Below are positions 2,230 through 25,630 of a stretch of 32,000 bases of DNA, piece by piece; position 1 is the first letter of the stretch, and every line of letters starts with the position of its first letter. The stretch lies in the NCBI RefSeq assembly GCF_000010625.1, contig NC_010296.1, positions 1,560,001-1,592,000 on the forward strand, read 5' to 3'. Source of the stretch: Microcystis aeruginosa NIES-843. Its GTDB lineage: Bacteria; Cyanobacteriota; Cyanobacteriia; Cyanobacteriales; Microcystaceae. The translations under genes were made by a program, and so were the position numbers. The notes beneath the pieces are model-generated. The model was not told where the DNA came from. It searched no databases and saw nothing but the letters and a program-made list of their open reading frames with translations.

Positions 2230-2934
2230 ATGAGCGAAAAAGTTGTCCTGATTGTCGGTGCTACGGGGGGTATCGGTGCCACTTTAGCCCGTAAACTAGC
2301 TGTTAATGGTCATAAACTCGTATTGGTGGCCAGAAATGCCGATAATTTATCTAATTTAGCCAGTGAGTTGCCTTGTCCCTCTTTAATTGTGCCGACGGAT
2401 ATCACCAATCCGACTCAGGTAGAAACTTTGATGGCAAAAATTGTCTCCCATTACGGCCGGTTGGATGTGTTGGTTAATGCGGCCGGAGCCGGTGTGATGA
2501 AACAATACAATAAAATCACGCCGGAAGATTTAGATAAAATGCTCGACCTCAATCTGAAGGGAAGTTTTTATACCTGTCAGGCTGCCGCTAATGTGATGAA
2601 GGAAAATAAAGCCGGTCATATCTGTAATGTGGTGGGAATTTTAGGTAAGCATTCTATGGCTATGGCTGCCGCTTATTGTGCTTCTAAATACGGGGTGGTC
2701 GGTTTTAGTAAATGTTTGGCCGATGAGTTAAAACGCTATGGTATTAAAATGACTTTATTCTATTTTGGTGGTGTCGATACTCCTTTTTGGGATCAGGTGA
2801 GCTTAAAAGTTGATCGCAATAAAATGTTAACCGCTCAAACCGCCGCCGATGCTATCTATTTTGCCATGAATGCTGAACCCCAAGCCGTCCCCATGGAAAT
2901 TAATATTCAACCCGATAGTCATCTCTTTTTTTAG
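2230..2934 (+). CDS. Short-chain dehydrogenase/reductase (SDR family oxidoreductase)
   Basis: N-terminal Rossmann motif VGATGGIGATLARKL, NAAG, and catalytic YCASK (YxxxK). Confidence 0.9.
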   Translation: MSEKVVLIVGATGGIGATLARKLAVNGHKLVLVARNADNLSNLASELPCPSLIVPTDITNPTQVETLMAKIVSHYGRLDVLVNAAGAGVMKQYNKITPEDLDKMLDLNLKGSFYTCQAAANVMKENKAGHICNVVGILGKHSMAMAAAYCASKYGVVGFSKCLADELKRYGIKMTLFYFGGVDTPFWDQVSLKVDRNKMLTAQTAADAIYFAMNAEPQAVPMEINIQPDSHLFF

Positions 2935-2940
2935 TCATCA

Positions 2941-3050
2941 GGAGTCAGGAGTTGAGAGTTGGGGTTTTAGGGAGTTGGGGTTTTGGGGTATTAGTTGAAA
3001 TTACCCTATCTCCTCACTCCCCCATTTCCCCATTTCCCCACTCCCCACTT
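2941..3050. repeat. Composite intergenic repeat, copy A. Order: GGAGTCAGGAGT, telomere-like G-rich arm, AGTTGAAATT core, then C-rich CCCCATT/CCCCACT heptamers.
   Basis: Same architecture and near-identical core (ggggtattagttgaaatt) as the copies at 6901-7147 and 17898-17984. The G-tracts at 2961-2988 fit G3+N1-7 repeated four times. Confidence 0.8.
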
Positions 3051-3082
3051 ACTAACACTCAACCACTTTTTTGACTTTATCT

Positions 3083-4168
3083 ATGTTTGTTGATCATATT
3101 CATTTTTATGTAGAATCGGCCAAAAAATGGCGAGATTGGTTTGTGCGGGTGATGGATTTTCAGGCGATCGCAAGTTTAGTTAATCTCCACACGCACACGG
3201 AAATAGTTGGCAATGGCATCCAAAAAGATAAAACTAAACAGATTATTTTTATCTTATCTTCTCCCTTAAATTCCCTTAGTCCCGTGGCGGAATTTTTAAG
3301 TAAATATCCTGAAGGGGTGGCGGATGTAGCTTTTCAAGTAGAGGATTTAGACAGTTTAGCTAGGAGAATTAAACAGGACATTTTTATTGAGGAAACTGTT
3401 TTGGCTAGGGGTAAGATAAAAAGCTGTCAAATCTCTAGCATTGCTGATCTCAAACATACGTTAATTGAAAGGCAGGGAATCACGCCAATTTTAGCCGATC
3501 CTAATCTGATTCAATACGATAGTCAGCAACAATATAATCAGGATATTCTGGCAATTGATCACTTAGTTTTAAATGTTTTTCAAGGGAATTTAGAGTTAAC
3601 AGCCAATTGGTATGAGGAAAATTTAGGCTTTAAAAAAAGGCAAACTTTTACTATTAAAACGGAGCGTTCTGGTCTTTATTCTCAGGTACTTGTTTACCCG
3701 AAAACTGAATTAAAATTACCGATTAATGAGCCAGATAGTAACAGTTCTCAAATACAAGAATTTTTAGATATTAATCAAAAATCTGGCATTCAACACATTG
3801 CTTTAAAAACAGAAAATATTGTAAACTTAACTCAAAAGTTAAGAGAAAAAAATGTAGAATTTTTATCAGTTCCCGACAGTTATTATCGACAAATTAACTA
3901 TCAAAAGAAAGCCTTTAATATTGCTGATTGGGAATGGTCAGAAATTAAAAAGCAGGAGATTCTCATCGATTTTGAACAAAATAGTTATTCTCTCCCGGAA
4001 AAGCCGACTTTACTGCAAATTTTCACTAAACCAATTTTTTCCCAGCCGACTTTCTTTTTTGAATTAATCGAGCGACGTCATGCCGCTAGAGGTTTTGGAG
4101 AAGGCAACTTCCGGGCCTTATTTGAAGCGATCGAACGGGAACAAATACAGAGAGGAACTTTGGATTAG
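3083..4168 (+). CDS. hppD: 4-hydroxyphenylpyruvate dioxygenase
   Basis: Two VOC/glyoxalase-like halves and the typical C-terminus FFELIERR...GFGEGNFRALFEAIEREQ. ATG at 3083 (MFVDHIHFYV) is preferred over the track's TTG at 3071. Confidence 0.9.
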   Translation: MFVDHIHFYVESAKKWRDWFVRVMDFQAIASLVNLHTHTEIVGNGIQKDKTKQIIFILSSPLNSLSPVAEFLSKYPEGVADVAFQVEDLDSLARRIKQDIFIEETVLARGKIKSCQISSIADLKHTLIERQGITPILADPNLIQYDSQQQYNQDILAIDHLVLNVFQGNLELTANWYEENLGFKKRQTFTIKTERSGLYSQVLVYPKTELKLPINEPDSNSSQIQEFLDINQKSGIQHIALKTENIVNLTQKLREKNVEFLSVPDSYYRQINYQKKAFNIADWEWSEIKKQEILIDFEQNSYSLPEKPTLLQIFTKPIFSQPTFFFELIERRHAARGFGEGNFRALFEAIEREQIQRGTLD

Positions 4169-4199
4169 AGTCAGAAAAGCGATAATTTTTCCCATGAGA

Positions 4200-4736
4200 C
4201 TATGAACGATAACGTAATTCGATCACATCTTTTTTGATCGTGACATCATAGGAACCAAAAAAAGTTTGTCCCAAGAGTCCTAACCCTTCCATTTGGGGAG
4301 AAATACCAACAATCTGATTAGATAAAGCCACCTCGCCAACTTTAACAGAATTAATGCGACCAAGATACACAGTAACGACACCGCCGGCGGTATGAGCGAG
4401 TACTTCCTTTTCCCGTTTGACTTTCATCGCTTTCGCCATGGCATCGGTGAGGACGATACCACTAGCTCCCGTATCAAAAAGCATTTCATAATAGTGACGG
4501 TGATTAAAAACCACCATCACCGTGGGAATGCCGTTAACCCGGCGTTGAATCGGTAACTGATAAACTTGCGGGGAATTTTTCCTATTTCTGGATGAACCGC
4601 CACAGAGACGGCTAAGATCTATGTGTTGTCCATCTGCTCTTTGGAGAAAGCATTCCGATTGAGCGAGAGTCGTAGGGGTGAAGGGAAATAACAGCAGGGT
4701 GCTGGCCAATGCGATCGCAGAAATAGACTTATTCAT
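4200..4736 (-). CDS. Secreted retropepsin-like (clan AA) aspartic protease
   Basis: Active-site motif FDTGASGIVLT. A signal-peptide-like N-terminus (MNKSISAIALASTLLLFPFTPTTLAQS) appears when translation starts at ATG 4736. The longer track ORF (to 4835) would overlap the HIT gene. Confidence 0.7.
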   Translation of the reverse strand: MNKSISAIALASTLLLFPFTPTTLAQSECFLQRADGQHIDLSRLCGGSSRNRKNSPQVYQLPIQRRVNGIPTVMVVFNHRHYYEMLFDTGASGIVLTDAMAKAMKVKREKEVLAHTAGGVVTVYLGRINSVKVGEVALSNQIVGISPQMEGLGLLGQTFFGSYDVTIKKDVIELRYRS

Positions 4737-4819
4737 GGGTTTAACATCGAGAAGACTGACTCGGAAAAGAACGCTTCTAGCCCTATAATTCCCCAAAAAA
4801 GCGGGAAAATAAGGGGTAT

Positions 4820-5167
4820 TTAACCCGGAGGCCAAGCCATTAGGCGATCGCCTAAGAGATGGACATGAAGATGATCGACGGTTTGACCCCCATGTTCCCC
4901 ATTATTGATCACCACGCGATAACCTTGACTTAATTTAGCTTCGGCGGCCACCTTTTTAACAGTTAGTAACAAATGCCCCAATAAATCGCGATCGCTGTCG
5001 CTGGCTTCCTCTAGTTTCGGAATCGGTTTTTTGGGGATAATGAGGATATGGGTGGGTGCTTGGGGATTAACATCTCGAAAAGCGAGAACCAGATCATCTT
5101 CATAAACGATCGAGGCAGGAATTTCTTTACGGATAATTTTGCTAAAAATAGTCTCGCTCATAGACAA
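4820..5167 (-). CDS. HIT-family (histidine triad) nucleotide hydrolase/transferase
   Basis: 115 aa with the histidine-triad motif HLHVHLLG near the C-terminus and the typical N-terminus IFSKIIRKEIPA. Confidence 0.9.
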   Translation of the reverse strand: MSMSETIFSKIIRKEIPASIVYEDDLVLAFRDVNPQAPTHILIIPKKPIPKLEEASDSDRDLLGHLLLTVKKVAAEAKLSQGYRVVINNGEHGGQTVDHLHVHLLGDRLMAWPPG

Positions 5168-5341
5168 ATTGCTTTTTTTTTAACTATACCATTAAGCTCT
5201 CAGCTTTTCTGGCTAGGTTATCCCTAGAAATACGCTGATTTTCTGGGTAAATTCCCAGATAAAATCATTTTTATGCGGAAAACTAGCCGAACATCCTGTT
5301 TAATTTTCCTAAGAACTCACTTTATTTTTAGTTGAGCCAAA

Positions 5342-6868
5342 ATGTTAGCAAGGGTTTGGAGTGCGGCAATTATCGGCATCGATGCCATTAAAATCGGGGT
5401 AGAGGTGGATGTATCGGGGGGATTACCCGGAATTGCCGTGGTGGGTTTACCCGATACCGCCGTGCAGGAGTCGAAAGAAAGGGTAAAAGCTTCCCTAAAA
5501 AATGCCGGATTTGCCTTTCCCATCCGCAAAATTGTCATCAATTTAAGTCCCGCCGATATCCGCAAAGAGGGGCCGATTTATGATTTACCGATTAGTATCG
5601 GCATTTTAGGGGCTTCCGAACAGGTAGAAGCCGATTTATTGGGGGATTTTCTCTTTTTAGGCGAATTATCCCTCGATGGTAGTTTGCGTCCCGTGGCGGG
5701 GGTTTTACCCATTGCTGCCGCTGCCGAAAAAATGGGGATTAAGGGTTTAGTGGTTCCTGCCGATAATGCCAAAGAAGCGGCCGTGGTTAAAGGCGTACAA
5801 GTGTATGGGTTTCGTCATCTATCGGAAGTGGTAAATTTCTTAAATGAACCCGATCGCCATTCACCGATGACTTTTAACGCTGCCGAGGAGTTCGGGCGAT
5901 CGCAGGTAAATCTCCCCGATCTCAAGGATGTCAAAGGCCAAGCCATTGGCCGTCGGGCCCTGGAAATTGCAGCGGCTGGAGGTCATAACCTAATTTTTGT
6001 CGGGCCACCGGGCAGCGGTAAAACCATGTTAGCGCGACGTTTACCCGGAATTCTGCCCCAGCTTACCTTTGCCGAATCCCTAGAAGTCTCCCAGATTCAT
6101 TCCGTCGCCGGATTACTGAAAGATCGAGGTTCCCTGGTGCGCGAGCGTCCTTTTCGCAGTCCCCATCACTCCGCTTCCGGAGCGGCACTGGTGGGAGGTG
6201 GCACTTATCCCCGACCGGGAGAAATCTCCCTTTCCCACCGTGGTATTTTATTTTTGGACGAATTAACGGAATTTAAGCGCAGTGTCTTGGAATATCTCCG
6301 GCAACCCCTAGAGGATGGTTATGTGAGCATTTCTCGCACTCGTCTTTCCGTCGCTTTTCCGGCGCGTTTTACCTTGGTGGCCAGTACCAATCCCTGTCCC
6401 TGTGGTTATTACGGCGATTCGGTGCAACCCTGCAGCTGTTCACCGCGACAACGGGAACAATATTGGGCGAAATTATCGGGGCCGCTTTTAGACCGTATTG
6501 ACCTACAAGTGACGGTAAATCGCCTAAAACCAGAAGAAATGACCCAAGAGAGTCGGGGAGAAGCTTCTGAGCAAGTGCGGCAACGGGTAGAAAGGGCCCG
6601 GCAAAAGGCCAGCGATCGCTTTCAGAATACGGGGATTCGCTCTAATGCGGAGATGAATTCCGAGCATTTGCGGGGTTTTTGCGCTCTTGATCATAGCAGT
6701 CGCCATATTTTAGAAGGGGCAATCCGAAAATTGGGTTTATCGGCCCGAGCAATGGATCGCATTCTCAAAGTTGCCCGCACCATTGCCGATTTAGGAGATA
6801 GTGAAATGCTGAAAAGTTCCCACGTTGCCGAAGCAATTCAGTATCGCACTCTCGATCGTTTAAGTTAG
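5342..6868 (+). CDS. comM: YifB/ComM-family Mg-chelatase-like ATPase
   Basis: Lon-like N-terminal domain, Walker A GPPGSGKT, Walker B ILFLDELTEF, a Cys cluster CPCGYYGD..CSC, and the ChlI-like C-terminal domain. Confidence 0.92.
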   Translation: MLARVWSAAIIGIDAIKIGVEVDVSGGLPGIAVVGLPDTAVQESKERVKASLKNAGFAFPIRKIVINLSPADIRKEGPIYDLPISIGILGASEQVEADLLGDFLFLGELSLDGSLRPVAGVLPIAAAAEKMGIKGLVVPADNAKEAAVVKGVQVYGFRHLSEVVNFLNEPDRHSPMTFNAAEEFGRSQVNLPDLKDVKGQAIGRRALEIAAAGGHNLIFVGPPGSGKTMLARRLPGILPQLTFAESLEVSQIHSVAGLLKDRGSLVRERPFRSPHHSASGAALVGGGTYPRPGEISLSHRGILFLDELTEFKRSVLEYLRQPLEDGYVSISRTRLSVAFPARFTLVASTNPCPCGYYGDSVQPCSCSPRQREQYWAKLSGPLLDRIDLQVTVNRLKPEEMTQESRGEASEQVRQRVERARQKASDRFQNTGIRSNAEMNSEHLRGFCALDHSSRHILEGAIRKLGLSARAMDRILKVARTIADLGDSEMLKSSHVAEAIQYRTLDRLS

Positions 6869-6900: not shown

Positions 6901-7147
6901 GGAGTCGGTCGTCAGGATTCAGGATTCAGGAGTCTGGAGATAGGGTTTTAGGGTTTTAGGGTTTTAGGGTGTTGGGGTTTTAGTTGAAATTCCCCCAATA
7001 CCCCACTACTCCACTTCCCCATTTCCCAATTCATAATTCCCCCATTTCCCCACTTCCCCATTTCCCCACTTCCCCATCTCCCTACACCCCACACCCCACA
7101 CCCTACACCCTACACCCCACACCCTACACCCTCTTTCAAGTCAGGAG
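6901..7147. repeat. Composite intergenic repeat, copy B (the largest). Order: CAGGATT/CAGGAGT units, (GGGTTTTA)n G-rich arm, AGTTGAAATT core, long C-rich heptamer arrays (CCCCACT, CCCCATT, CCCCACA/CCCTACA), then CAGGAGT units.
   Basis: Read directly from the sequence. Five G-tracts at 6943-6977; C-rich arrays at 6991-7132. Lies between the convergent genes comM and 7148..8452. Confidence 0.85.
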
Positions 7148-8452
7148 TCAGGAATCGGGGGATTCTAAGCGTTTTTGCCATTCTCGATCGATTTTATCCG
7201 AGCGCTCGCTCTCTTGTTCGAGATAGTCTTGATCCGTAGAATAACTAATATCAGCATCCCTAATCACTTTTTGGTCGGCAAATTGACGAGAGTAGGCCAG
7301 TTTTTGCTCTAATTCAGGATTATTTTGGGCTAATAAATCTGCTCTTTTTTCTCGCTGTTGATTGCGTTGATTAACCCGCTTATTTCTCCACTGTAAAAAG
7401 AAATAACGACCGAGGGGAATCCCCAAAAAAGCAGCGGCATAACTGAGGAGAAAACCGTAGATACCTGTGACTATCGACCCCAGAGAACCGCTCAAATCAA
7501 CACTATCACTGTTGAGCAAAAATCCTAAAACTAAAGCGAGGATAAAGTTAACCACCCCTAAACCTAAAGCTAAGATAATTTGACCGCTATCCGCTTCGCT
7601 AAACTTCCAGCTTTTTTCCCTTAGATAGGGCGAAACTGTTTGTAATTTTCTCTCTTTGGTTGTCACCTGTAGATCGGGAAAATAATAGATAATATCGCCT
7701 CGATCGGACACTTGCGGCAATCCATTAAAGCGAGTTAAAACTGGGAGTATATAGTCTTCTGTTTCCTCCTGACTGGGGGTAATACTATCGAGATAGGGGA
7801 CAATTTGTGGAGCGATAATCGAGCCACGATTATTTTGAATTACTTTACCGATAGTTTGCCAGCGTCTCTCCTCTAAATTAAAATTAGGATCGCCATCGCC
7901 AAAAATAAAAGAAAAAACTGCCTCGAGAAAATTCATCTTACTAGGGGGTTTTTCTGCCTTAACTTCCCGATCTCTTCTTTCGTAGTAGTTATTACTAAAA
8001 TCGGGATAAAAAATCCAGAAAAAGTCCGTGGGAAAGAAGTTAATATTAATTTTGCTATCTCCAGAATTGTTATCCGAGTCACCATCTTTGAACATTAAGC
8101 CGATCAGGATCGCCAGAATAGCGAGCAACAGGATTAAAATCGAAATAATTAAAACAATGCCAAAGGAAATGCGAATAACATAAAAAACTACTTGCCAGAT
8201 TTTACTCCCGAAAGCTTTTAACTGCAATTGCCAATATTTATTCAGAAGAATTGAGCGAAAATTTTCAGGGAAAAGATAGATAATCTCCCCCGTATCTGCT
8301 ACCTGTAAATGTCCCCCCGCTTCCGCCGCTAAAGCTAATAATCCCTGTTGTGCAGCATTAATCTCTAAACCCGATTTTGCCGCCACATCACCCACCGTAA
8401 CCCGATAGCCTAATTTTTCGATCGATTGTAATAGAGACTCTTGGGGATTCAT
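7148..8452 (-). CDS. Hypothetical membrane protein with two related soluble modules and two hydrophobic segments
   Basis: 434-aa ORF. An internally repeated motif (...GEIIYLFPENF / ...GDIIYYFPDLQ) is each followed by a long hydrophobic stretch. I recognised no family. Confidence 0.7.
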   Translation of the reverse strand: MNPQESLLQSIEKLGYRVTVGDVAAKSGLEINAAQQGLLALAAEAGGHLQVADTGEIIYLFPENFRSILLNKYWQLQLKAFGSKIWQVVFYVIRISFGIVLIISILILLLAILAILIGLMFKDGDSDNNSGDSKININFFPTDFFWIFYPDFSNNYYERRDREVKAEKPPSKMNFLEAVFSFIFGDGDPNFNLEERRWQTIGKVIQNNRGSIIAPQIVPYLDSITPSQEETEDYILPVLTRFNGLPQVSDRGDIIYYFPDLQVTTKERKLQTVSPYLREKSWKFSEADSGQIILALGLGVVNFILALVLGFLLNSDSVDLSGSLGSIVTGIYGFLLSYAAAFLGIPLGRYFFLQWRNKRVNQRNQQREKRADLLAQNNPELEQKLAYSRQFADQKVIRDADISYSTDQDYLEQESERSDKIDREWQKRLESPDS

Positions 8453-8644: not shown

Positions 8645-9079
8645 GTGAGCATGAATGCGTCGGAACAGGCAAAAGGATTAGAATTAACGGCGAAGATCGC
8701 CACACTCGTCAACCTGTTTAAACAACAATTCCCCGATGCAAAGGCAGATCTGAAACCCTGGCGCAATGATCCCCACACAAGGGAGTTAACGGATCCCGAC
8801 TCGATCGATATCGCTTTCCATTTTCCCGGTTGGAGTCCCAGAATTCAAGGGCGCAGTATTCTGGTACAAATTCGTTTTCATCTCGATAGCGAGGATCAGC
8901 ATCAGCGTTTGATTGGCTTAGAAATGCAGGCTTTTAACCATCAAGGAACCGCTTGGCGACTATCTACGGTGGAAAATTGGCAATTAGTCGGCAATTATCA
9001 ACCCTCTCCTAAGGTGGCTGATAAGTTAAAATATTTCAGCCGTCAGGTGTTTGAAGTTTTTAAAAATGAGCATCGATAA
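8645..9079 (+). CDS. Hypothetical protein (144 aa)
   Basis: Clean ORF with host-like composition. GTG start at 8645, or ATG at 8651. No recognisable motif. Confidence 0.6.
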   Translation: MSMNASEQAKGLELTAKIATLVNLFKQQFPDAKADLKPWRNDPHTRELTDPDSIDIAFHFPGWSPRIQGRSILVQIRFHLDSEDQHQRLIGLEMQAFNHQGTAWRLSTVENWQLVGNYQPSPKVADKLKYFSRQVFEVFKNEHR

Positions 9080-9153: not shown

Positions 9154-9720
9154 CTAAATTAATTCTTGAAAGTGCTTCGCTTGAGCGGAAATTTTTAACA
9201 TTTTTTCTGGTTGATCATGAATCTCATTTTTTTGAGAGGATTTACGGCTGCTGGTGGTTGTTTTAGAAATACTGATATTTTTAATACTAACAAAGCGATA
9301 TTGATAGTCCTGAAGAAAATCGGGTTGATTCCAAAATAAGCGTCCGATTTCACGACAATAGGAGACAAAGCATTCGGCTCCTTTTAATTGTTTAATTATC
9401 GATGAATTAGAATCTCTGCTTTTCTTCATTTCCAAACAAAGGATAACTTTTTCAGTAGGGGTATTAGCGATAATTATAAAATCTGCACGCTTACACTCAC
9501 CTTTATTACCAGTAAAAATTGTGCGGACATCAAAAAACTCATCTAGCTTGATCGCAATAACTTGATCGGGTTCAGGCATTCCACTAATCACAAATGAATA
9601 GTTATCTTGATTTTCTATCAGTTTCAGTAAATAGCTATCTCGTTTGTATTCTTTTTTATACTCTAACTCTACTATCGCACACTTGCTAATCATTTCTTTG
9701 AGGATAGCAATATCAGACAT
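9154..9720 (-). CDS. Small protein with a PD-(D/E)xK-like nuclease motif, partner of the upstream ATPase
   Basis: 188 aa. CKRAD80-FIIIA followed 17 residues later by VILCLE97-M-K99-K. Each of the two motifs adjoins a hydrophobic (beta-strand-like) run, the classic restriction-endonuclease-fold pattern. Its start codon overlaps the ATPase stop (TAATG at 9718-9722). AT-rich. Confidence 0.65.
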   Translation of the reverse strand: MSDIAILKEMISKCAIVELEYKKEYKRDSYLLKLIENQDNYSFVISGMPEPDQVIAIKLDEFFDVRTIFTGNKGECKRADFIIIANTPTEKVILCLEMKKSRDSNSSIIKQLKGAECFVSYCREIGRLFWNQPDFLQDYQYRFVSIKNISISKTTTSSRKSSQKNEIHDQPEKMLKISAQAKHFQELI

Positions 9721-11108
9721 TACTCCTCACCCCAAATAATAGCCGTTTGAATACGATTCATATTTTCGATAGTAGTATCAAAACTACGCGCTTCAATACC
9801 CATTTCTGGATCAATTTTAGCGGGGTTTAAAGTGTGAAATTTGGTTTTTCTTTTCTGTCCTTTTAACATCTTTGAATCTTCTTCAGCAATATATACTTTA
9901 ACTTGATCGGCCGATAATAATTCCTCTTGTCTATAGCCTTCTTCTGCGGCAATTTGTTTCAGGTGTGGTTTATTATGGTTAAGCATAATTAATGTATTGA
10001 TTTCTTTGATAATATAATCACTGTGAGTAGTGATAAAAACTTTAATACCAATGTTGATCAGTCGAGCGAAAAGTTTAGCGATACGGCGTTGATTTTCTGG
10101 ATGGAGATTTAATTCAGGTTCATCTACTATCAACAAATCTCCGATGCGAGCTTCGTGTCTTAAATAAAAGCCAATGTCTAAAAGAGAACGTACAGCACTA
10201 GAACTTTCATCCATCGATAGTCTAAGTTTTTTTCCTTTAGGAATGTAATAAAGTTCATCATTGCTAGTAATCATATATTGACCACCAATAATATCGGCAA
10301 AATCTTCTAAAATACTGGGATGATTTTCGGCAATAAAGCTATTTTTTTTGACAATTGTTTCTATTTGTCTAGTAAAATCTACATTTTTTTTGACTGGTAG
10401 CGCATAATCCTGAGAAACATTAAATAACAGTTCCCTAGGATTAAAATTGCTATTTTTACTAATTTCTTCCAGTAAACGATTACGAGCAAAATTTAACTCT
10501 TTGCGAAAAATTGCCGCTCCTGTCCTTTCTGCACTGGCAATAAATGGCCTGGGAAAAAACTGAGAGAAAATTATATCTTGGATGCTGTCGTAAATGATAT
10601 CCTCAAGAAAATGCACTGGCAGATTTATTTTTTCTGTTTCTGTTAATAATGTGATGGATAAATAAGGGTCATTTTCAGGTTTGCTAATCGAGATAATTTC
10701 CCATGTTGCTGTACTAATTTTCTTTTCATACTTATTTTGAAATTGAATATTGTCAAAATTTAATTCTATCTGAAAATCAACATTTTTAAACCTCTCCTCG
10801 TTGGCCGCAAAAACTTCAGGTATTTGTCGAATATATCTTTGACAACCTGTAGTAAGAATACTTTCACACTGTTGAACATACTCCTGTAGATCGAGACTAA
10901 TTACACCATCAGAAAGTAGTTGATCAACTTTTTCTTTGAGGCTAAATGTTGATCCCTTTAATAGTTGTCGCCAAGTGTCTAAAAAACCAAATAAAGAATA
11001 TGTAGCATAAGTTTTACCTGTGTTATTACCACCACAGATAATTGTGAGGTTGCCTAGACTTAATTCTGCCTGTTTTAAAATGCCAAGATTTTTAATTTTA
11101 ACTTTCAT
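9720..11108 (-). CDS. ABC/OLD-type (AAA_15/AAA_21-like) ATPase
   Basis: 462 aa with Walker A GGNNTGKT (26-33), signature-like LSMDESSSAVRS (297-308), Walker B LLIVDEPELNLHP (D329/E330) and H-loop ITTHSD (H362). About 260 aa are inserted between Walker A and the signature, as in RecF/SMC/OLD-like ATPases. No TOPRIM or other effector domain is fused. Confidence 0.85.
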   Translation of the reverse strand: MKVKIKNLGILKQAELSLGNLTIICGGNNTGKTYATYSLFGFLDTWRQLLKGSTFSLKEKVDQLLSDGVISLDLQEYVQQCESILTTGCQRYIRQIPEVFAANEERFKNVDFQIELNFDNIQFQNKYEKKISTATWEIISISKPENDPYLSITLLTETEKINLPVHFLEDIIYDSIQDIIFSQFFPRPFIASAERTGAAIFRKELNFARNRLLEEISKNSNFNPRELLFNVSQDYALPVKKNVDFTRQIETIVKKNSFIAENHPSILEDFADIIGGQYMITSNDELYYIPKGKKLRLSMDESSSAVRSLLDIGFYLRHEARIGDLLIVDEPELNLHPENQRRIAKLFARLINIGIKVFITTHSDYIIKEINTLIMLNHNKPHLKQIAAEEGYRQEELLSADQVKVYIAEEDSKMLKGQKRKTKFHTLNPAKIDPEMGIEARSFDTTIENMNRIQTAIIWGEE

Positions 11109-11212
11109 ATTTGTCTTTAGGTTTAATATTCACGATGATAGATAATTGTGGGTAATTTGATCAAGTCCCAAACTATACATTCAACTTTGGTTATCAAGGT
11201 TGCTTACAGAAA

Positions 11213-11797: not shown

Positions 11798-11923
11798 GGG
11801 AAAAAGGAGTCAGGAGATAGGAGTCAGGAGCTTTTTGCTTTTATCAGTAAAAATCAAACAGTAATCCGTGAAAAGAAAGCTCTGAACTTGCCACTTAATA
11901 CTATTCACTGAAAACTAAAATAT

Positions 11924-11975
11924 GATAACTGATTACTGATTACTGATTACTGATTACTGATTACTGATCACTGAT
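11924..11975. repeat. Heptamer tandem array (GATTACT, about 7 copies)
   Basis: gataact gattact x5 gatcact read directly. It abuts the stop codon of the ABC-2 permease gene. CAGGAGT units lie at 11806-11832. Confidence 0.9.
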
Positions 11976-12764
11976 TCAATCCCGTTGATGGGAGAATTGA
12001 TAAGCACCGACAATCGAGAGAAGAAGAGCGACGATTAATAAAATAGGGATAGCGAACCAAGGAAATTGATTTATATCGTAGGCTGCGGCTCTTAATCCCA
12101 GACTAGCATAGGTGAGGGGTAAGGAATAAACAATAATTTTTAATGGCCAGGGTAAAGTTTGGGGGTCGAAAAAAGTTGCTCCTAAAAAAGACATCGGCAC
12201 GATTAAAAAGTTATTATACAGACTGACACTTTCGAGGGATTTAACTCGCAATCCGACAATTGCCCCTAAACCGGCAAAGACGGCACAATTTAAGATTAAA
12301 ACTAATAAAAAGAGGGGATTGAGAAAACTGACAAATTTTCCTGTAAATAAGATAGCAACGAGAATCACCGATGCAGAAGTCATTACACCGCGCAAAATCC
12401 CCGCAAAAACTTTGCCTAAAAATAATGAGAGGGGATGGACGGGAAGTAATAATAATTCCTCGAAGGTTTTACTAAATAAGCGATCGCCACATATCGAAAA
12501 GGTGGTTCCCCCGAAACTGATCGCCATTGAGGACAGGGCCACCATTCCGGGTAAAATAAATTCTAGATAAGAATCGCCGAGCGAGGGTTTCATCGAGCGA
12601 TCGAGGGCGCTTCCCAACCCCAACCCGAAACCGATAATATAGATTAGGGGAGAAACTAAACCTGTGGCGGCGATCTGAAGGACTCTCGCGCGTAAATCTA
12701 GCCATTCTCCCCAAAATACGGTTAAAGTGTCTGTTAATATCGTCTGAGCTTGAGCTAGTTTCAC
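11976..12764 (-). CDS. ABC-2 type transporter permease
   Basis: 262 aa with about 6 predicted TM segments and an ABC-2 (NodJ/YadH-like) layout. No ATPase partner is adjacent in this window. Confidence 0.75.
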   Translation of the reverse strand: MKLAQAQTILTDTLTVFWGEWLDLRARVLQIAATGLVSPLIYIIGFGLGLGSALDRSMKPSLGDSYLEFILPGMVALSSMAISFGGTTFSICGDRLFSKTFEELLLLPVHPLSLFLGKVFAGILRGVMTSASVILVAILFTGKFVSFLNPLFLLVLILNCAVFAGLGAIVGLRVKSLESVSLYNNFLIVPMSFLGATFFDPQTLPWPLKIIVYSLPLTYASLGLRAAAYDINQFPWFAIPILLIVALLLSIVGAYQFSHQRD

Positions 12765-13041: not shown

Positions 13042-15318
13042 ATGAAACCCTGTTACTGCATTAATCCCGATTGTTCTCAACCAGGGCATCCGAGTAATAA
13101 TAACTCGAATACTCGTTACTGTCAAAGTTGCGGCTCTCAATTGTTGTTAAATGGTAAATATAGGGTGAGTCGGTTATTGAGTGATACGACCGGTTTTGGC
13201 ATTGTTTATGAGGCTTTTGAAGGTTTTACAGCCAAAATCCTCAAGGTATTACAAGAAAAATGGAATAATCAACCGAAGGCAGTGGAATTATTTAAACGGG
13301 AATATGACGTTTTATTAGAGTTAAGTCGTCAAAATGTCACCGGTGTTCCTCGAGCGGATGCCTATTTTCAATATTCCACGAGAGAAGGGAAAATATTACA
13401 CTGTTTAGTTATGGAAAAAGTGGAGGGTATTAATTTAGAACAGTGGCTAAAGCAGTATGATAAATTAAGTCAAAAACGAGCCTTAAAATGGCTGAGAGAA
13501 ATTACTTTAATTCTCGATAAAATTCATCAACAGAATTGGATGCATCAAGATATTAAACCCCCTAATATTATGTTGCGGAATAGTGGCGAGTTGGTGTTAA
13601 TTGATTTTGGGACAGCAGGGACAGCAAGGGAAGAAACCCAAACCTATCATCAAAAGGGAAAAGGTCAACAGGTGACAGGTATTACCTCGGTCGGATATAC
13701 ACCCAATGAACAACAACATAGCCAGGCGGTGATTCAATCAGATTTTCATGCTTTAGGACGAACTTTTATGCATTTATTAACCGGAAAACATCCCTTAGAA
13801 ATTTATTATGATGCGTATAATGATGTTTTAGCTTGGCGAGAAGAAACGGAAAATATTCACCCGTTATTGTTGGATTTTATTGACGAGTTAATGGGAAGAT
13901 TACCCAAGAATAGACCGGCTAATACTAGGGTTATTTTACAGCGTTTGGATGAGATTGAACGGCAATTAAAGTTACCTCCTATAACTCCTATTATAACATC
14001 TCCACCACCACCAAATCCGCAGCCTGTTGTAAATCAAAAACAACCACAGGTTATTCCTAATATTAATCCTTCTCCGCCGGTTTCACCTGTGGCTGTACCC
14101 AAAAAAACACCAGCACAACCGGTTAAAAATAATAAGCTGAGAAATAGAATAATAGCTCTTGGTGGAGTTTTGTTATTAGGAATAGGAATAACGCAAGGTT
14201 ATGGTTATTTAAAATATAAAAGATTTCCGGTTACTCCTCAATTTTTAATCTCTGGTTTAGTTGATACTCCCTTTCTTTATAAGACCTTTACTGGTCATTC
14301 TGAGGCGGTTAACTCAGTAGCTTATAGTCCCGATGGACGGTTTTTGGCGAGTGTGAGTAATTACGATAGCATCAAAATTTGGGATATAGAAAATGGAAAA
14401 GAACCGCTTAATCTTGCTAATAATTCTAGCTTGATTAACTTAGTAGCCTATAATCCTTTAGCAGTAATAATCCTTGATGGTATAGTCTCTCCTCTTCCTC
14501 TTCAACAACAAGTAGAGCTTAATCTTAATAAAGTCTTGTCAGTAGCTTATAGTCCAGATGGACGCTATTTAGCCAGTGGGGGTGGGACATTATTGACTCA
14601 GGGGGAAGAACAGGGGGAAGAACAAAGTGTAGATATCATCAAAATTTGGGATATAGAAAGGAGAAAAGAATTGTTTCCCATTACTGTTAATTCTCGGCAT
14701 ATAGTTAACTCAGTAGCCTATAGTCCCGATGGCCGCTACTTAGCTAGTGGAAGTGCGGACAAAACTATCAAGATTTGGGATACAAAAACAGGAACAGAAT
14801 TGAGTACCCTCACTGGTCATTCTGAGGCGGTTAACTCAGTAGCTTATAGTCCAGATGGAAGGTATTTAGCGAGTGCGAGTAGTGACGAGACTATTAAAAT
14901 TTGGGATGTAAAAAATAACAAAGAATTAAATACCTTTATTTATAATTATTCAAAGACAATAACAGGTGTGGGCTATTTAATTAGAATAGCCTATAGTCCT
15001 AATGGACGATATTTAGCCAGTGGATATCTTAATGGAACTATCCAACTTTGGGATGTAAAAACAGGAAACAAAGTGCATACTCTTACTGGTCATTCTGGTT
15101 CGGTTATTCCATTAGCATATAGTCCCGATGGCCGCTATTTAGCTAGTGGGAGTAGTGACGGGACTATTAAAATTTGGGAGGTAGCAACGGGAAAAGAATT
15201 GCGTACCCTTACTGGTCATTCTGACACGGTTTGGTCAGTAGTATATAGTCCCGATGGCCGTTATTTAGCTAGTGGGAGTGGTGACAAAAATATAAAAATT
15301 TGGCGGGTGGGACAGTAA
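13042..15318 (+). CDS. Ser/Thr protein kinase with N-terminal Cys4 zinc-ribbon, Pro-rich linker, TM segment and C-terminal WD40 repeats
   Basis: CINPDCSQ...CQSCG; kinase motifs HQDIKPPNIM and LIDFGTA; a PPPPNPQP linker; repeated VNSVAYSPDGRYLASGS.D.TIKIWD blades. Confidence 0.92.
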   Translation: MKPCYCINPDCSQPGHPSNNNSNTRYCQSCGSQLLLNGKYRVSRLLSDTTGFGIVYEAFEGFTAKILKVLQEKWNNQPKAVELFKREYDVLLELSRQNVTGVPRADAYFQYSTREGKILHCLVMEKVEGINLEQWLKQYDKLSQKRALKWLREITLILDKIHQQNWMHQDIKPPNIMLRNSGELVLIDFGTAGTAREETQTYHQKGKGQQVTGITSVGYTPNEQQHSQAVIQSDFHALGRTFMHLLTGKHPLEIYYDAYNDVLAWREETENIHPLLLDFIDELMGRLPKNRPANTRVILQRLDEIERQLKLPPITPIITSPPPPNPQPVVNQKQPQVIPNINPSPPVSPVAVPKKTPAQPVKNNKLRNRIIALGGVLLLGIGITQGYGYLKYKRFPVTPQFLISGLVDTPFLYKTFTGHSEAVNSVAYSPDGRFLASVSNYDSIKIWDIENGKEPLNLANNSSLINLVAYNPLAVIILDGIVSPLPLQQQVELNLNKVLSVAYSPDGRYLASGGGTLLTQGEEQGEEQSVDIIKIWDIERRKELFPITVNSRHIVNSVAYSPDGRYLASGSADKTIKIWDTKTGTELSTLTGHSEAVNSVAYSPDGRYLASASSDETIKIWDVKNNKELNTFIYNYSKTITGVGYLIRIAYSPNGRYLASGYLNGTIQLWDVKTGNKVHTLTGHSGSVIPLAYSPDGRYLASGSSDGTIKIWEVATGKELRTLTGHSDTVWSVVYSPDGRYLASGSGDKNIKIWRVGQ

Positions 15319-16008: not shown

Positions 16009-16203
16009 ATGATGACTAACATTATCATTGATGACCAACTCATGGCTGATGCTCTTAAAGCTACTGGTTTAAAGACTAAACAAGAAGTTGTTGAATTGGG
16101 TCTTAAGACTTTGATTCGGCTCAAACAACAGGAGAAAATTAAAGCCTTTAAAGGTAAGCTTAAATGGGAAGGAAACCTTGAGGAAATGAGGCACAATCAA
16201 TGA
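16009..16203 (+). CDS. vapB: Type II antitoxin, VapB family
   Basis: MMTNIIIDDQLMADALKATGLKTKQEVVELGLKTLI... is typical of VapB/DUF2191-like antitoxins. Its stop overlaps the vapC start (ATGA). An internal ATG is preferred over the track start at 15970. Confidence 0.8.
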   Translation: MMTNIIIDDQLMADALKATGLKTKQEVVELGLKTLIRLKQQEKIKAFKGKLKWEGNLEEMRHNQ

Positions 16204-16571
16204 TTCTTGTGGATTCTAGTGTTTGGATTGATTTACTGCTGGGAGTTGAGCCGATAGCTATTGGTGATATTATTCTCACCGAAGTTCTCCAAGGTTTTAG
16301 GAGTGATAAGGATTATCAAATAGCCTATCGCTTACTAACTTCATTGACTATTTATGATTTACTAGGTTTGAGAATGGCATTGAAAAGCGCGGACAATTAT
16401 CGCCAGTTACGCAAGAAGGGGATAACTATTAGAAAAACTGCTGATGTTATTATTGCCTCCTTTTGTATTGAAAATAATCTTCCGCTCCTTTTTTCAGATA
16501 AAGATTTTATTCCTTTCGTGAAGCACTTAAAGCTAATTTCAGCTTGTCCTACTACTAATGATGAACGATGA
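16200..16571 (+). CDS. vapC: PIN-domain ribonuclease toxin VapC
   Basis: MILVDSSVWID... N-terminus with the first acidic PIN residue, and C-terminal ...LLFSDKDF. 4-nt overlap with vapB. Confidence 0.88.
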   Translation: MILVDSSVWIDLLLGVEPIAIGDIILTEVLQGFRSDKDYQIAYRLLTSLTIYDLLGLRMALKSADNYRQLRKKGITIRKTADVIIASFCIENNLPLLFSDKDFIPFVKHLKLISACPTTNDER

Positions 16572-17151: not shown

Positions 17152-17850
17152 TTAATTGGTTAAACCGTGTTTTAGGGCAAAACGTACCAATTCCGTGCGA
17201 CTATTAGTACCAGTCTTGCTAAATAAGCGACTGACGTATTTTTCTACGTTTCTGACACTGGTTTCTAGACGACTGGCAATTTCTTTATTCATCAATCCCT
17301 CCGCTACTAAATCTAAAACACTTTGTTCCCGGGGGGTAAGGTCAATTTTAATCGGGGGGGGAGTAGTAGTAAAAGTGTTCTGTTGTCCCACCTGCTGTTT
17401 TAATTCCCGGATATCTCGGGCAATTTCTTCTAATCTAGCGTTTTCGCTGGTGGCTTGCAGGGATTGACGACGGCGCTCGATTAAAGACTTGATTAATGCT
17501 TCTAATTCTTCGGGATCGAAAGGCTTGGATAAATAAGCATCACAACCGGCATTATAACCCTGAATGCGATCGCTCGTCATCCCCCTAGCAGTGAGAAAAA
17601 CCACGGGAATTGTCTGAAAACGAGCATCTTCGCGCAATTTCTTCAGAAACTGATAGCCATCCACCTGCGGCATCATAATGTCGGAGATGACTAATTCCGG
17701 AATTTCTTGATTGAGTAAATCCCAGGCTTCGTTAGCATTACTAGCAGTTCTTACCTCGAAGTCATCCCCGTACTGTAGATATGCTTGCACAGATTCACGA
17801 ACCCCCGGTTCGTCATCCACTAACAAAACTTTCGCAGGTGTGTCCATCAA
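17152..17850 (-). CDS. Two-component response regulator, NarL/FixJ (LuxR HTH) type
   Basis: Receiver domain (VLLVDDEP...SDIMMPQVDG...SKPF) followed by a LuxR-type HTH (LTPREQSVLDLVAEGLMNKEIASRLETSVRNVEKYVSRLFSK). Confidence 0.92.
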   Translation of the reverse strand: MMDTPAKVLLVDDEPGVRESVQAYLQYGDDFEVRTASNANEAWDLLNQEIPELVISDIMMPQVDGYQFLKKLREDARFQTIPVVFLTARGMTSDRIQGYNAGCDAYLSKPFDPEELEALIKSLIERRRQSLQATSENARLEEIARDIRELKQQVGQQNTFTTTPPPIKIDLTPREQSVLDLVAEGLMNKEIASRLETSVRNVEKYVSRLFSKTGTNSRTELVRFALKHGLTN

Positions 17851-17984: not shown

Positions 17985-18769
17985 GTTACAGTAGAGCAGG
18001 AAGTCGCCTTCCCACCCCCTGCTTCAAAACCGGACTTACGACTTTCGCCGTATCCGGCTCCTGAGTAACTAGGCTACTGTCATTAGTAGAATAATAATGG
18101 GAATTATTATTTCCTTGTCTATTCAACCCTCTTGGCTGTATCCCCACCAGACAAGATTGTTGGTTTTAGGGCGTATATGACCGTTGATTGTTGCTTAGAC
18201 TTCCTAGTTACCCGTCCTTTGTCAGCATATCTTTGATATTACTCAAAGCCTTGGCTTTTAAGGACATCCTCTCCCTCTATTGACTTGCGGATGGTTTCCT
18301 ACTGCCCCGAACGGGCAGAGTCAATCAGGGTTACTTCGTTCCCTATAACCATTGGTTGAACCCTTAGGATGATACTGTCCACAACAGAGTAACGGGAATG
18401 CCTTACTGATAGTGGTATGAGCTATCAGCCCCAACTCTGTTAACTTTTGTTTCGAGCCTGTCAGCCTTTTGGCTCGTGGGTGTTGACGATGGTTAATTCG
18501 TATCTTCGCCCCAGGGCTATCCATAGGTTCTGGCTCAACGGGTTTCTGATTTAGGCTATCAGATACCGCTTTTTTTTCCTCGCTCACTACCTCAGATGTA
18601 CCAAGTCTAAAGCAGCAGGAAATGCCGTCACTCTAGGCATCTAGAGGACAGGACTAAGGTTATTACTAACCCGCACCTGTAGGGTTATAAAGTTATCAAG
18701 GTACTACATTTACCAAGCGGCTAATCCTCTAAACGTCTTACTGTCTAGTTTCTAGCCAACGAATCGCAC
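17985..18769 (-). mobile_element. ORF-less group II intron (about 785 nt)
   Basis: The minus-sense sequence starts GTGCG (18769..18765) and ends ...CTGCTCTACTGTAAC. Canonical 34-nt domain V: GAGCCGGATACGGC-GAAA-GTCGTAAGTCCGGTTT, with the AGC triad, a GNRA loop and a 2-nt bulge. It is followed by a domain VI hairpin whose candidate branch A sits 7 nt before the 3' end. Domain IV is reduced to a short hairpin (aataataat-tccc-attattatt). No RT ORF. Confidence 0.8.
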
Positions 18770-18814
18770 CACACCCCACACCCTACACCCCACTTCCCCA
18801 CTTCCCCACTTCCC
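18770..18814. repeat. C-rich heptamer array (CCCCACA / CCCCACT), right part of composite repeat copy C
   Basis: cacaccccacaccctacaccccacttccccacttccccacttccc read directly. Confidence 0.8.
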
Positions 18815-21080: not shown

Positions 21081-21149
21081 CTTCCCCACTACCTCACTAC
21101 CCCACTACCCCATCAACCCACTTCCCCACTACCCCACTACCCCACTTCC
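21081..21149. repeat. C-rich heptamer array (CCCCACT/ACCCCAC variants)
   Basis: cttccccactacctcactaccccactaccccatcaacccacttccccactaccccactaccccacttcc begins immediately after the stop codon at 21080. Confidence 0.85.
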
Positions 21150-21552: not shown

Positions 21553-21647
21553 CCCCACACCCTACATCCCACACCCCACACCCCACACCCCACACCCCAC
21601 ACCCCACACCCCACACCCCACACCCCACACCCTACACCCCACACCCT
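21553..21647. repeat. Heptamer tandem array (CCCCACA, about 13 copies; GGGGTGT on the minus strand)
   Basis: Read directly. It ends 13 nt from the stop codon of the minus-strand gene 21660..24410. Confidence 0.92.
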
Positions 21648-24613: not shown

Positions 24614-25228
24614 CTACAGACTTAAGAAAATCTGATTGACAGTGAGATTTAATTCCGTGAAAGTCTGGGAGATCAGGATATCTCTGTCTCGAAATTGCCG
24701 AATTTGATATTCTTCCTCAACTAAGCGACAAACAGAGATGGTCGGTTGTTTAGGAGTGCCAAGAAAATTACGCCCACCCAAGGCTGCATAATCGACAATC
24801 CAATATTCGGGAATACCCATTTCTTCATAATCAGCAAATTTTAAGTAGTAATCATCACGCCAGTTAGTCGATACCACTTCAATGATCAGAGGGATAGATG
24901 CACCATCCCTAAGGATTGATTCTTTTTTCCATAATTTTTCCTGAGCGAGCTTGGTTCGATTTAGCACTAATACATCGGGAAAATAACCAGAATTTTTACC
25001 AGCAGGTCTGACAATCGCTTGGTTAGGAATTAAATAAGGAAGCCCTAGTCTATCAATTATTCCACTGAGTTTAACAGTTAAAAATCCTTTGATTTCCTCG
25101 TGTTCTCCTGCGGGTTGTGCCATTTCAATAATATTTCCCTTGTGTAGCTCATAACGCACTCCCGAATTTTCAGGCAGCCAAAGGACGAATTCCTCGAAAT
25201 TAACAGTTTTAGGTAAAGTTTGGCTCAT
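24614..25228 (-). CDS. Uma2-family (DUF820) putative endonuclease
   Basis: FEEFVLWLPE...YELHKGNIIEM..P...H and PDVLVL...PLIIEVVS...D...K...Y...GIPEYWIVD, the PD-(D/E)xK pattern typical of the family. ATG at 25228 is preferred over the track's TTG at 25237. Confidence 0.88.
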   Translation of the reverse strand: MSQTLPKTVNFEEFVLWLPENSGVRYELHKGNIIEMAQPAGEHEEIKGFLTVKLSGIIDRLGLPYLIPNQAIVRPAGKNSGYFPDVLVLNRTKLAQEKLWKKESILRDGASIPLIIEVVSTNWRDDYYLKFADYEEMGIPEYWIVDYAALGGRNFLGTPKQPTISVCRLVEEEYQIRQFRDRDILISQTFTELNLTVNQIFLSL

Positions 25229-25630
25229 AGCTGGCAAAATAGCATTCTCTCTCTACTAACTTCCTTAGCTCTATTTTACCTTGAAGTAAGGTGGGCATTG
25301 CCCACCCTACAAACTCTCTACACAATCTGCGATCGCACTATCGCTGCCAAAAACGATGAGGACGAAACCAAAAATATAATTGGTAACGACGGCGAGGTTC
25401 ATAAAAGGAGTCAGTTGCCAGTTAGTTTTTAGATCTCCATTTGGCAATATTACACCCTCATAAAATTCTTTACCACCGGAGCCGCCTAGTAAGTTTATAA
25501 AGAGGTCTCCTTGATTAACGCTGAATGTTCCAGCAATTCCTGATGATGAAGTTGATCTCGGCGGCTTAGATGTGTAGTTATAGCGCTTTTCACGTTACTG
25601 AGGTATCGACAAGTTTTGCCAACAAAGGGT

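Follow-up and report, generated by a model that had tools for sequence, protein, structure and literature searches.

The gene pair and its junction

Two genes, A and B, on the minus strand of a 32,000-nucleotide stretch of Microcystis aeruginosa NIES-843 DNA (NC_010296.1, positions 1,560,001 to 1,592,000; hereafter the window, in whose numbering coordinates are given) encode an OLD-family ABC ATPase and a small protein with a predicted PD-(D/E)xK-like nuclease core. This cassette is probably a cyanobacterial member of the anti-phage family in which an OLD-type ABC ATPase is paired with a small restriction-endonuclease-fold nuclease, and PD-T4-4 of Escherichia coli and WonAB of Vibrio cholerae are validated relatives of it. 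An earlier note on this DNA, made from the sequence alone, had described the pair as a candidate novel defence cassette. The genes and the sites around them are as follows.

9720..11108, minus strand: gene A, 462-residue OLD-family ABC ATPase (open reading frame list, Pfam, PADLOC)
9154..9720, minus strand: gene B, 188-residue divergent PD-(D/E)xK-like protein, PDC-M47B (open reading frame list, PADLOC, AlphaFold2)
9718..9728, minus strand: coupling junction GAGGAG-TAATG, a Shine–Dalgarno-like run followed by the stop codon of A and the start codon of B
11135..11164, minus strand: weak sigma-70-like promoter match, 104-nt spacer upstream of A, 9 of 12 positions

The earlier note had reported two minus-strand open reading frames here, and both were found with exactly these boundaries. 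Base 9720 is common to the stop codon of A (TAA) and the start codon of B (ATG), and the Shine–Dalgarno-like GAGGAG lies immediately 5′ of the TAATG junction, the sequence of which is GAGGAGTAATG (also given as GGTGAGGAGTAATG). A search of 185,579 species genomes (one genome per species) yielded 235 relatives, and the locus counts given here cover the best 80 of these. In 79 of the 80 loci the gene immediately upstream of B, on the same strand, is a homologue of A. At the 75 loci where both gene ends align, so that the junction can be scored, the 1-nt stop/start overlap is kept in 56 (TAATG in 49, TGATG in 6) and the remainder have intergenic gaps of at most 11 nt. The prevalence of the overlap and the shortness of the other gaps indicate that translational coupling is ancestral and has been maintained. 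A and B form a conserved, translationally coupled unit, as was expected from the one-base TAATG overlap and the single operon proposed before; the conservation of the pair as a unit, which had been suggested as a check, is seen in the same 79 loci.

A scan of the cassette region for promoters and terminators gave nothing exceeding chance. The region scanned holds six promoter-like sites compared with a mean of 9.6 in shuffled controls, so that the match at 11135..11164 stays a mere candidate for the operon promoter, and the sole terminator-like site is on the wrong strand, within B. The flanks are as the earlier note had described them: an unannotated 144-residue open reading frame (8645–9079) is convergent with B, and a PseudoU_synth_2 (pseudouridine synthase) gene lies upstream of A. 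The convergent frame was considered as a third component and rejected, as it adjoins the cassette in Microcystis alone.

Protein A is an OLD-family ABC ATPase

In Pfam, A matches AAA_15 (E = 2e-24) and AAA_21 (E = 8e-14), the families to which ABC ATPases like those of OLD, Gabija and PARIS belong. The Pfam coverage extends over residues 2–367, and the remainder belongs to the PDC-M47A model of PADLOC. No fused nuclease or TOPRIM domain was found in A with the Pfam and PADLOC models, which show an ATPase alone and support the earlier view of the gene as lacking a fused effector. Four motifs were located in A.

11010..11033, minus strand: Walker A motif GGNNTGKT, residues 26–33, including K32 (motif search)
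10185..10220, minus strand: ABC signature-like stretch LSMDESSSAVRS, residues 297–308 (motif search)
10113..10136, minus strand: Walker B motif LLIVDEPE, residues 325–332, followed by the D-loop NLH
10017..10031, minus strand: H-loop TTHSD, residues 360–364, 96–100% conserved

Conservation was assessed over 70 full-length homologues of A. In the Walker A motif, conservation is 100% at G26, N28, N29, G31, K32 and T33 and 99% at T30; the SSSAVRS segment of the signature-like stretch is 99–100% conserved, and D329, E330, P331 and E332 of Walker B are each 100% conserved. Over the whole set of Walker A, SAERTG (which occupies the Q-loop position), SSSAVRS, DEPE, NLH and TTHS, the core residues are 96–100% conserved, while some flanking positions within the quoted motif strings are variable. 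The full ABC/RecF/OLD-type motif set that the earlier note had read in A is thus present, with every quoted motif located and with conserved cores.

Sequence matches of A in the PDB are to UvrA, the OLD-family nuclease 6p74 and the retron Ec78 PtuA. Weaker PADLOC matches are to AriA (7e-27), Old (7e-14), GajA (5e-13) and PtuA (2e-11). In PHROGs, A matches families of unknown function only and B has no match, and NCBIfam holds no specific model for either protein. A is therefore an OLD-family ABC ATPase without a fused effector, and it is predicted to be the sensor or switch subunit of the pair.

Motifs and model structure of protein B

Protein B has no match in Pfam and so contains no HNH, TOPRIM or DUF4435 domain, in agreement with the earlier note. 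It carries the motifs RADFIIIA (residues 78–85, with D80) and LCLEMK (residues 94–99, with E97 and K99).

9424..9483, minus strand: span of the putative catalytic codons of D80 (9481–9483), E97 (9430–9432) and K99 (9424–9426)

Among 132 diverse B homologues, which share 29–55% identity with the query, E97 never varies, and D80, K99, Q111, R78 and A79 are at least 90% conserved. Judged from this alignment, the conservation of the motifs far exceeds chance. A first AlphaFold run with 28 close homologues gave a mediocre model (pLDDT, the predicted local distance difference test score, of 70.9) for which the Foldseek result was meaningless. The AlphaFold2 model calculated with the 132-sequence alignment has a pLDDT of 92.5 and a predicted template modelling score (pTM) of 0.89. 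Its N-terminal part consists of a helix (residues 3–10) and a β-meander (residues 19–24, 27–36, 41–48 and 54–58), and its core consists of strands 81–86 and 91–98, helix 105–129 and strand 140–147. D80 lies at the N-terminal start of the first core strand, E97 lies on the second with K99 at its end, and Q111 lies on the helix. In the model, this core corresponds to the β2-β3-α2-β4 arrangement of PD-(D/E)xK enzymes, with the putative catalytic residues where the fold expects them. The restriction-endonuclease-fold signature that had been read in B therefore recurs as a conserved D...ExK...Q pattern with a β-β-α-β core in the model.

With the confident model, Foldseek returned nothing significant from the PDB (best E = 0.13) or from BFVD (best E = 0.03). 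PD-(D/E)xK-fold nucleases account for 11 of the top 50 weak PDB matches; the neighbours there include FokI, Nt.BspD6I (root-mean-square deviation of 3.8 Å over 73 columns), Mus81, FAN1, Avs3 and DdmDE, and the weak BFVD neighbours include UL24, VRR-NUC, Cas4/RecB and Mrr-like proteins. This enrichment in restriction-endonuclease-fold proteins is suggestive only. Because no Foldseek match is significant, the nuclease fold of B rests on the motif, the topology and the homology to PD-T4-4_B-type proteins described below. The structural check proposed in the earlier note gave a PD-(D/E)xK-like core in a confident model but no significant structural match. A PDB sequence search with the B profile returned lactate dehydrogenase matches only, which were judged to be spurious. 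B is predicted to be the nuclease effector of the pair.

Two further features of the B sequence were observed. The N-terminus, MSDIAILKEM, is nearly invariant. The cyanobacterial B proteins show no variation at Cys76, Cys117 or Cys122, and Cys117 is at least 90% conserved in the 132-sequence alignment; none of the three is conserved in the PD-T4-4_B-type or Vibrio phage partners considered below. These cysteines may form a clade-specific metal or redox site.

Assignment to PDC-M47

With the PADLOC hidden Markov models (HMMs), A matches PDC-M47A (PDLC04664) at E = 5.8e-243, with residues 1–462 aligned to positions 1–461 of the 461-position profile, and B matches PDC-M47B (PDLC04668) at E = 1.6e-79, with residues 1–188 aligned to positions 1–183 of 186. 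Four more PDC-M47B models also match B. PDC-M47 is one of the 145 phage defence candidates added to PADLOC by Payne et al. (10.1101/2024.01.29.577857), which were chosen for homologues embedded in BREX, DISARM or type I restriction–modification (RM) loci, and it is defined in PADLOC-DB v2 as the cassette FAM_00005>>FAM_02059 (10.1101/2024.01.29.577857). In the literature searched, the name PDC-M47 was not met in the main text and occurs in a supplementary table only, and no experiment with a PDC-M47 member was encountered.

On the strength of these profile matches the cassette is a PDC-M47 locus, already catalogued as a candidate. The earlier note had held that the pair matches no named system; this is contradicted by the full-length matches of both proteins to the PDC-M47A and PDC-M47B models and by the design shared with PD-T4-4 and WonAB, and a scan with the HMMs of PADLOC, a program that it had proposed as a check, returned the already named PDC-M47. 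Its functional call was correct and its novelty call wrong, a point that is settled by one scan with the PADLOC HMMs.

Relatives in E. coli, plasmids and phages

A also matches the PD-T4-4_A models PDLC04033 (1.8e-163, full length) and PDLC04032 (3.1e-73). The matches of B to the PD-T4-4_B HMMs are weak and partial (4.5e-6 over residues 57–160, and 2.2e-5). Related pairs were sought in E. coli genomes, plasmids and phages. One pair, on an E. coli plasmid of 4.8 kb, consists of a 462-residue ATPase with 33% full-length identity to A and a 198-residue partner that matches PADLOC PD-T4-4_B at 1e-43. The B-family profile aligns with this partner at an hhalign probability of 95% (E = 3e-8, 123 columns), with D80, E97xK99 and Q111 in register with the D, DLK and Q of the partner. 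These alignments indicate that B and the PD-T4-4_B-type protein are homologous, with B lying outside the PD-T4-4_B models proper.

In a Vibrio P2-like temperate phage, genes for an ATPase and a 209-residue partner are placed between those for the repressor and the integrase; the alignment of the B profile with this partner has a probability of 95.5% over 145 columns, with the DLK motif in register. In a P2-like prophage of E. coli W, a PD-T4-4-type pair lies between the replication endonuclease and portal genes, a slot which we take to be the P2 old/tin defence hotspot. The B protein of this prophage aligns with the B family over 33 columns at 6% probability only and was not used as support. 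Related pairs also occur on small non-mobilizable E. coli plasmids of 4–5 kb, and on a plasmid of the cyanobacterium Annamia dubia there is a pair with an A protein that shares 61% identity with that of Microcystis.

Distribution and neighbourhoods

A word-indexed search returned 571 relatives of B, all of which are annotated as hypothetical; identity is 81–96% within Microcystis and about 50–60% in other cyanobacteria. Searched against 1.84 billion cluster representatives (clusters at 50% identity), the B profile matched 677 clusters at E ≤ 0.001. The best 80 relatives among the species genomes come mostly from cyanobacteria, with a few from Methylococcales, Caldilinea, Desulfonema and Aminicenantes.

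Outside Microcystis, the immediate neighbours of the cassette (108 proteins at 54 loci) are mainly housekeeping proteins (Mfd/TRCF, Uma2, DUF2656 and others). No more than a few of the 108 match defence models, and there is therefore no defence-island signal; the enrichment beside known defence genes for which the earlier note had suggested looking is unsupported. The flanks outside Microcystis vary by lineage, with mfd upstream in many Nostocales, for example.

The mfd-like neighbour is a protein of about 1150–1199 residues, encoded at about 2900–6500 on the plus strand of loci L013, L035, L060, L064, L069, L071, L073, L078 and L079. TRCF, CarD and UvrB-interaction domains occur in nine of the 108 neighbour proteins, and in these Nostocales the cassette lies directly downstream on the same strand. 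The adjacency of mfd and the cassette is probably lineage synteny. Uma2 genes are among the commonest neighbours of the cassette in other cyanobacteria (eight of 108), and a gene for a Uma2-family putative restriction endonuclease also lies within the window (24614–25237, minus strand).

Composition and history in Microcystis

The guanine-plus-cytosine (GC) content of the cassette is 33.0%, compared with 41.5% for the window, and the cassette is the lowest-GC stretch of 1955 nt in the window (0.8th percentile). The AT-richness remarked on in the earlier note is thus real, but the contrast that it drew (25–35% against 53% for a sample of sat) was exaggerated: the sat gene has an overall GC content of 49.1%, and the GC content at third codon positions (GC3) is equally low in neighbouring genes (0.24 for A and 0.30 for B, against 0.28 for both the adjacent pseudouridine synthase gene and the kinase gene). 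Two other genes in the window, an AraC-type regulator (26227–27231, plus strand; 31.6%) and a glyoxalase-domain protein (3071–4168, plus strand; 35.2%), are also low in GC, and a low GC content is therefore not peculiar to the cassette.

In eight species-level genomes of Microcystis, the cassette and roughly 5.7 kb of surrounding sequence are collinear at a nucleotide identity of about 95%. The median synonymous divergence (dS) is 0.098 for A and 0.078 for B and lies between 0.076 and 0.124 for the flanking genes. As the dS of the cassette equals that of its flanks, the cassette was inherited with them and not recently acquired. Recent horizontal transfer, which the earlier note had inferred from composition and position, was rejected on the grounds of this synteny and dS. 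The ratio of nonsynonymous to synonymous divergence (dN/dS) is higher in the cassette (A, 0.34; B, 0.65) than in three flanking genes (0.02, 0.05 and 0.16); these are Nei–Gojobori values for short genes and are indicative only.

The cassette is incomplete in some strains. In Microcystis sp. T1-4 only the 3′ part of B is left (L025, 8002–8601) and unrelated IspH-like and ChlL-like housekeeping genes stand in place of A, which indicates a deletion or rearrangement. Another Microcystis genome has a truncated B of 146 residues. A protein identical to the B of the window, with the same neighbours, is encoded on the 5.87-Mb chromosome AP019314.1. The Microcystis locus is old, vertically inherited, fast-evolving and sometimes decaying; a raised dN/dS together with decay in some strains is typical of accessory defence genes.

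Proposed mechanism and alternative readings

The characterized relatives provide the basis for a mechanistic proposal. PD-T4-4 came out of a functional selection in E. coli and lies on an element resembling an integrative and conjugative element (ICE) (PMC9519451); its protection against T4 has been re-confirmed and it forms a higher-order complex. WonAB, from the V. cholerae WASA-1 prophage, consists of an OLD-type ABC ATPase (WonA, AWB73975.1) and a variant PD-(D/E)xK protein (WonB, AWB73976.1) (PMC12137116). Its protection needs both genes and is lost in Walker, Q-loop, H-loop and nuclease K71A mutants (PMC12137116). WonB is destabilized when the ATPase activity of WonA is lost and is predicted to bind WonA's dimerized C-terminal extensions (PMC12137116). 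The system acts by lysis-independent abortive infection after phage DNA replication has started, with capsid assembly blocked (PMC12137116).

If the Microcystis pair works as these relatives do, A would dimerize around ATP, and B would dock on the C-terminal extensions of the dimer and be kept inactive. A cue arising after the onset of phage DNA replication would alter the ATPase cycle and license B, which would cleave nucleic acid and halt late phage development, the infected cell being lost in an abortive infection. The earlier note had pointed to an ATPase sensor joined to a nuclease effector as the logic of several anti-phage systems, and the pair does fall in a family with experimentally shown activity.

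Several observations weigh against this interpretation. Defence in the PDC-M47 clade is itself inferred from homology and 'guilt by embedding', and few neighbours of the cassette match defence models. B matches nothing in Pfam or PHROGs, and no solved or viral nuclease matches its model structurally at a significant level. One preprint labels the PD-T4-4 effector an HNH nuclease, a label that nothing in the Microcystis B supports. In vitro, the purified EcPD-T4-4 complex was inactive on each of 11 DNA substrates, and the action of WonAB is not one of simple DNA degradation (PMC12137116); because of these two results, the step in which the nuclease would cut phage DNA is only putative.

The same two results bear on whether the effector, within the same family, is instead an RNase that acts on tRNA or mRNA, for example, and aborts infection through translation shutdown, as do PARIS AriB, PrrC and RloC. 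We regard this as possible but somewhat doubtful. The authors of the PD-T4-4 work suggest either a missing cue or RNA/tRNA targets for their inactive complex, and cells with WonAB still replicate phage DNA, which persists in a compacted form while capsid assembly is missing (PMC12137116). PD-(D/E)xK chemistry is able to cleave RNA as well as DNA, and in a 2026 preprint the OLD protein itself is reported to be an abortive tRNase. Nevertheless, no family member has been reported to cleave RNA, the weak structural matches of B are to nucleases that act on DNA, and the inactivity in vitro may merely reflect the missing activating cue.

A further reading, which we consider unlikely, is that the cyanobacterial PDC-M47 clade is a mechanistically distinct subtype that senses a cyanophage-specific or a transcription- or replication-linked cue and perhaps targets RNA. 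The additional N-terminal β-meander of B, the invariant C76, C117 and C122 and the lack of any significant structural neighbour point in this direction, as do the chromosomal fixation of the cassette in bloom-forming Microcystis and its position beside mfd in Nostocales. Were such a subtype real and protective, it would be a validated cyanophage defence of the family of OLD-ABC ATPases paired with restriction endonucleases (REases).

It is improbable that the pair is a selfish addiction module, toxin–antitoxin-like or serving competition between elements, in which the ATPase restrains a toxic nuclease without anti-phage benefit. The Pfam label of AAA_21 is 'putative AbiEii toxin, type IV TA system', where TA denotes toxin–antitoxin, but this is a family name rather than a tested function. 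Inactivation of the WonA ATPase leads to loss of the WonB protein, implying tight control by the ATPase (PMC12137116), and a stabilizing role is plausible for the related pairs on 4–5 kb non-mobilizable plasmids. However, strains with a truncated B or without A exist, so that loss is tolerated, and the validated relatives protect against phages with no reported toxicity.

That the pair is a chromosomal housekeeping module for DNA repair or the handling of replication conflicts is improbable: its fixed syntenic location in eight Microcystis genomes, flanked by genes of housekeeping type and showing a dS equal to that of the flanks, its place directly downstream of mfd on the same strand in at least nine Nostocales loci, the scarcity of defence genes among its neighbours and the relation of such ABC ATPases to UvrA and RecF are outweighed by its patchy distribution (235 relatives among 185,579 species genomes), its decay or loss in some Microcystis strains, a dN/dS above that of the flanks, a low GC content, close relatives on plasmids and in prophage defence slots, and the fact that its nearest tested relatives are defence systems.

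With membership of the anti-phage family as the preferred reading, a widespread cyanobacterial clade is placed firmly among the relatives of PD-T4-4 and WonAB, and the small subunit now has a confident predicted model with conserved putative catalytic residues. The biological value is modest. The trigger of the ATPase and the target of the nuclease are questions for the whole family. The Microcystis copy is not the easiest system in which to address them, although it would be of interest for work on the control of harmful blooms by cyanophages.

Other features of the window

An Rfam match to a group II intron (RF00029) lies at 17985–18062 on the minus strand (55 bits, E = 2e-8). No open reading frame of reverse-transcriptase size is listed near it, the adjacent frame (17152–17850) encoding a LuxR-type response regulator, and the match may represent an intron without an open reading frame or a remnant. 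Intergenic tandem repeats of 7–8 nt, of the CCCCACT/CCCTACA type and with up to 17 copies, occur at 6941–7132, 18788–18814, 21080–21146 and 21553–21646. The array at 6993–7124 accounts for a spurious proline-rich open reading frame (6984–7226). A TGATTAC array of 7.7 copies (11923–11976) lies between the pseudouridine synthase gene and an ABC-2 permease gene.

A PIN-domain open reading frame (16200–16571, plus strand) likely encodes a VapC-type toxin. In AP019314.1 (L085, 40–644) genes for a PIN protein and a VapB antitoxin lie beside a kinase–WD40 gene of 404 residues, compared with 758 residues here. The shorter kinase–WD40 gene and the PIN and VapB genes show that this region varies from strain to strain, and the 126-nt WD40 tandem repeats at 14987–15303 account for part of the variation. 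Two divergent genes for phosphoenolpyruvate (PEP)-utilizing, pyruvate phosphate dikinase (PPDK)-like proteins occupy 18924–21080 (plus strand) and 21660–24410 (minus strand); the latter has an N-terminal glycerol-3-phosphate acyltransferase (PlsY-like) domain, an unusual fusion.

Comparison with known systems

The cassette has its ATPase clade and the logic of a sensor ATPase with a nuclease effector in common with OLD, Gabija, PARIS and Septu. The effectors differ, with TOPRIM in OLD, GajA and AriB and HNH in PtuB, whereas B contains neither domain, and the helicase partner of Gabija, GajB, has no counterpart in the cassette. In BREX loci, OLD-ABC ATPases together with PD-(D/E)xK, HNH or PIN nucleases are described as forming a common back-up layer.

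The agreement with PDC-M47 is complete in gene order (A and then B), in the use of one strand and in the end-to-end matches to both HMMs. The PDC-M47 candidate was nominated on the basis of at least one homologue lying within a BREX, DISARM or type I RM locus, a setting that the Microcystis copy does not share.

PD-T4-4 (Vassallo et al., 2022; PMC9519451) likewise consists of two genes, the first for an ABC (AAA_15) ATPase and the second for a small PD-(D/E)xK protein. B is strongly diverged from the latter (22% identity in the core), and PD-T4-4 is carried on an ICE or other mobile elements, whereas the Microcystis copy is chromosomal and syntenic.

The authors of the WonAB study connect WonAB to PD-T4-4 and to the 2020 'OLD-ABC ATPase + novel REase' operon, and note that members of the family vary in ATPase inserts, in C-terminal extensions and sometimes in the nuclease (PMC12137116). 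According to the WonAB and BREX papers, that operon was described in silico (Krishnan et al., 2020; PMC7544218). WonAB resembles the cassette in architecture, with an ATPase without TOPRIM and a separate small variant PD-(D/E)xK protein. WonAB is borne on a prophage, and the Vibrio P2-like phage pair, the small partner of which is homologous to the B family, occupies an equivalent slot adjacent to the repressor gene.

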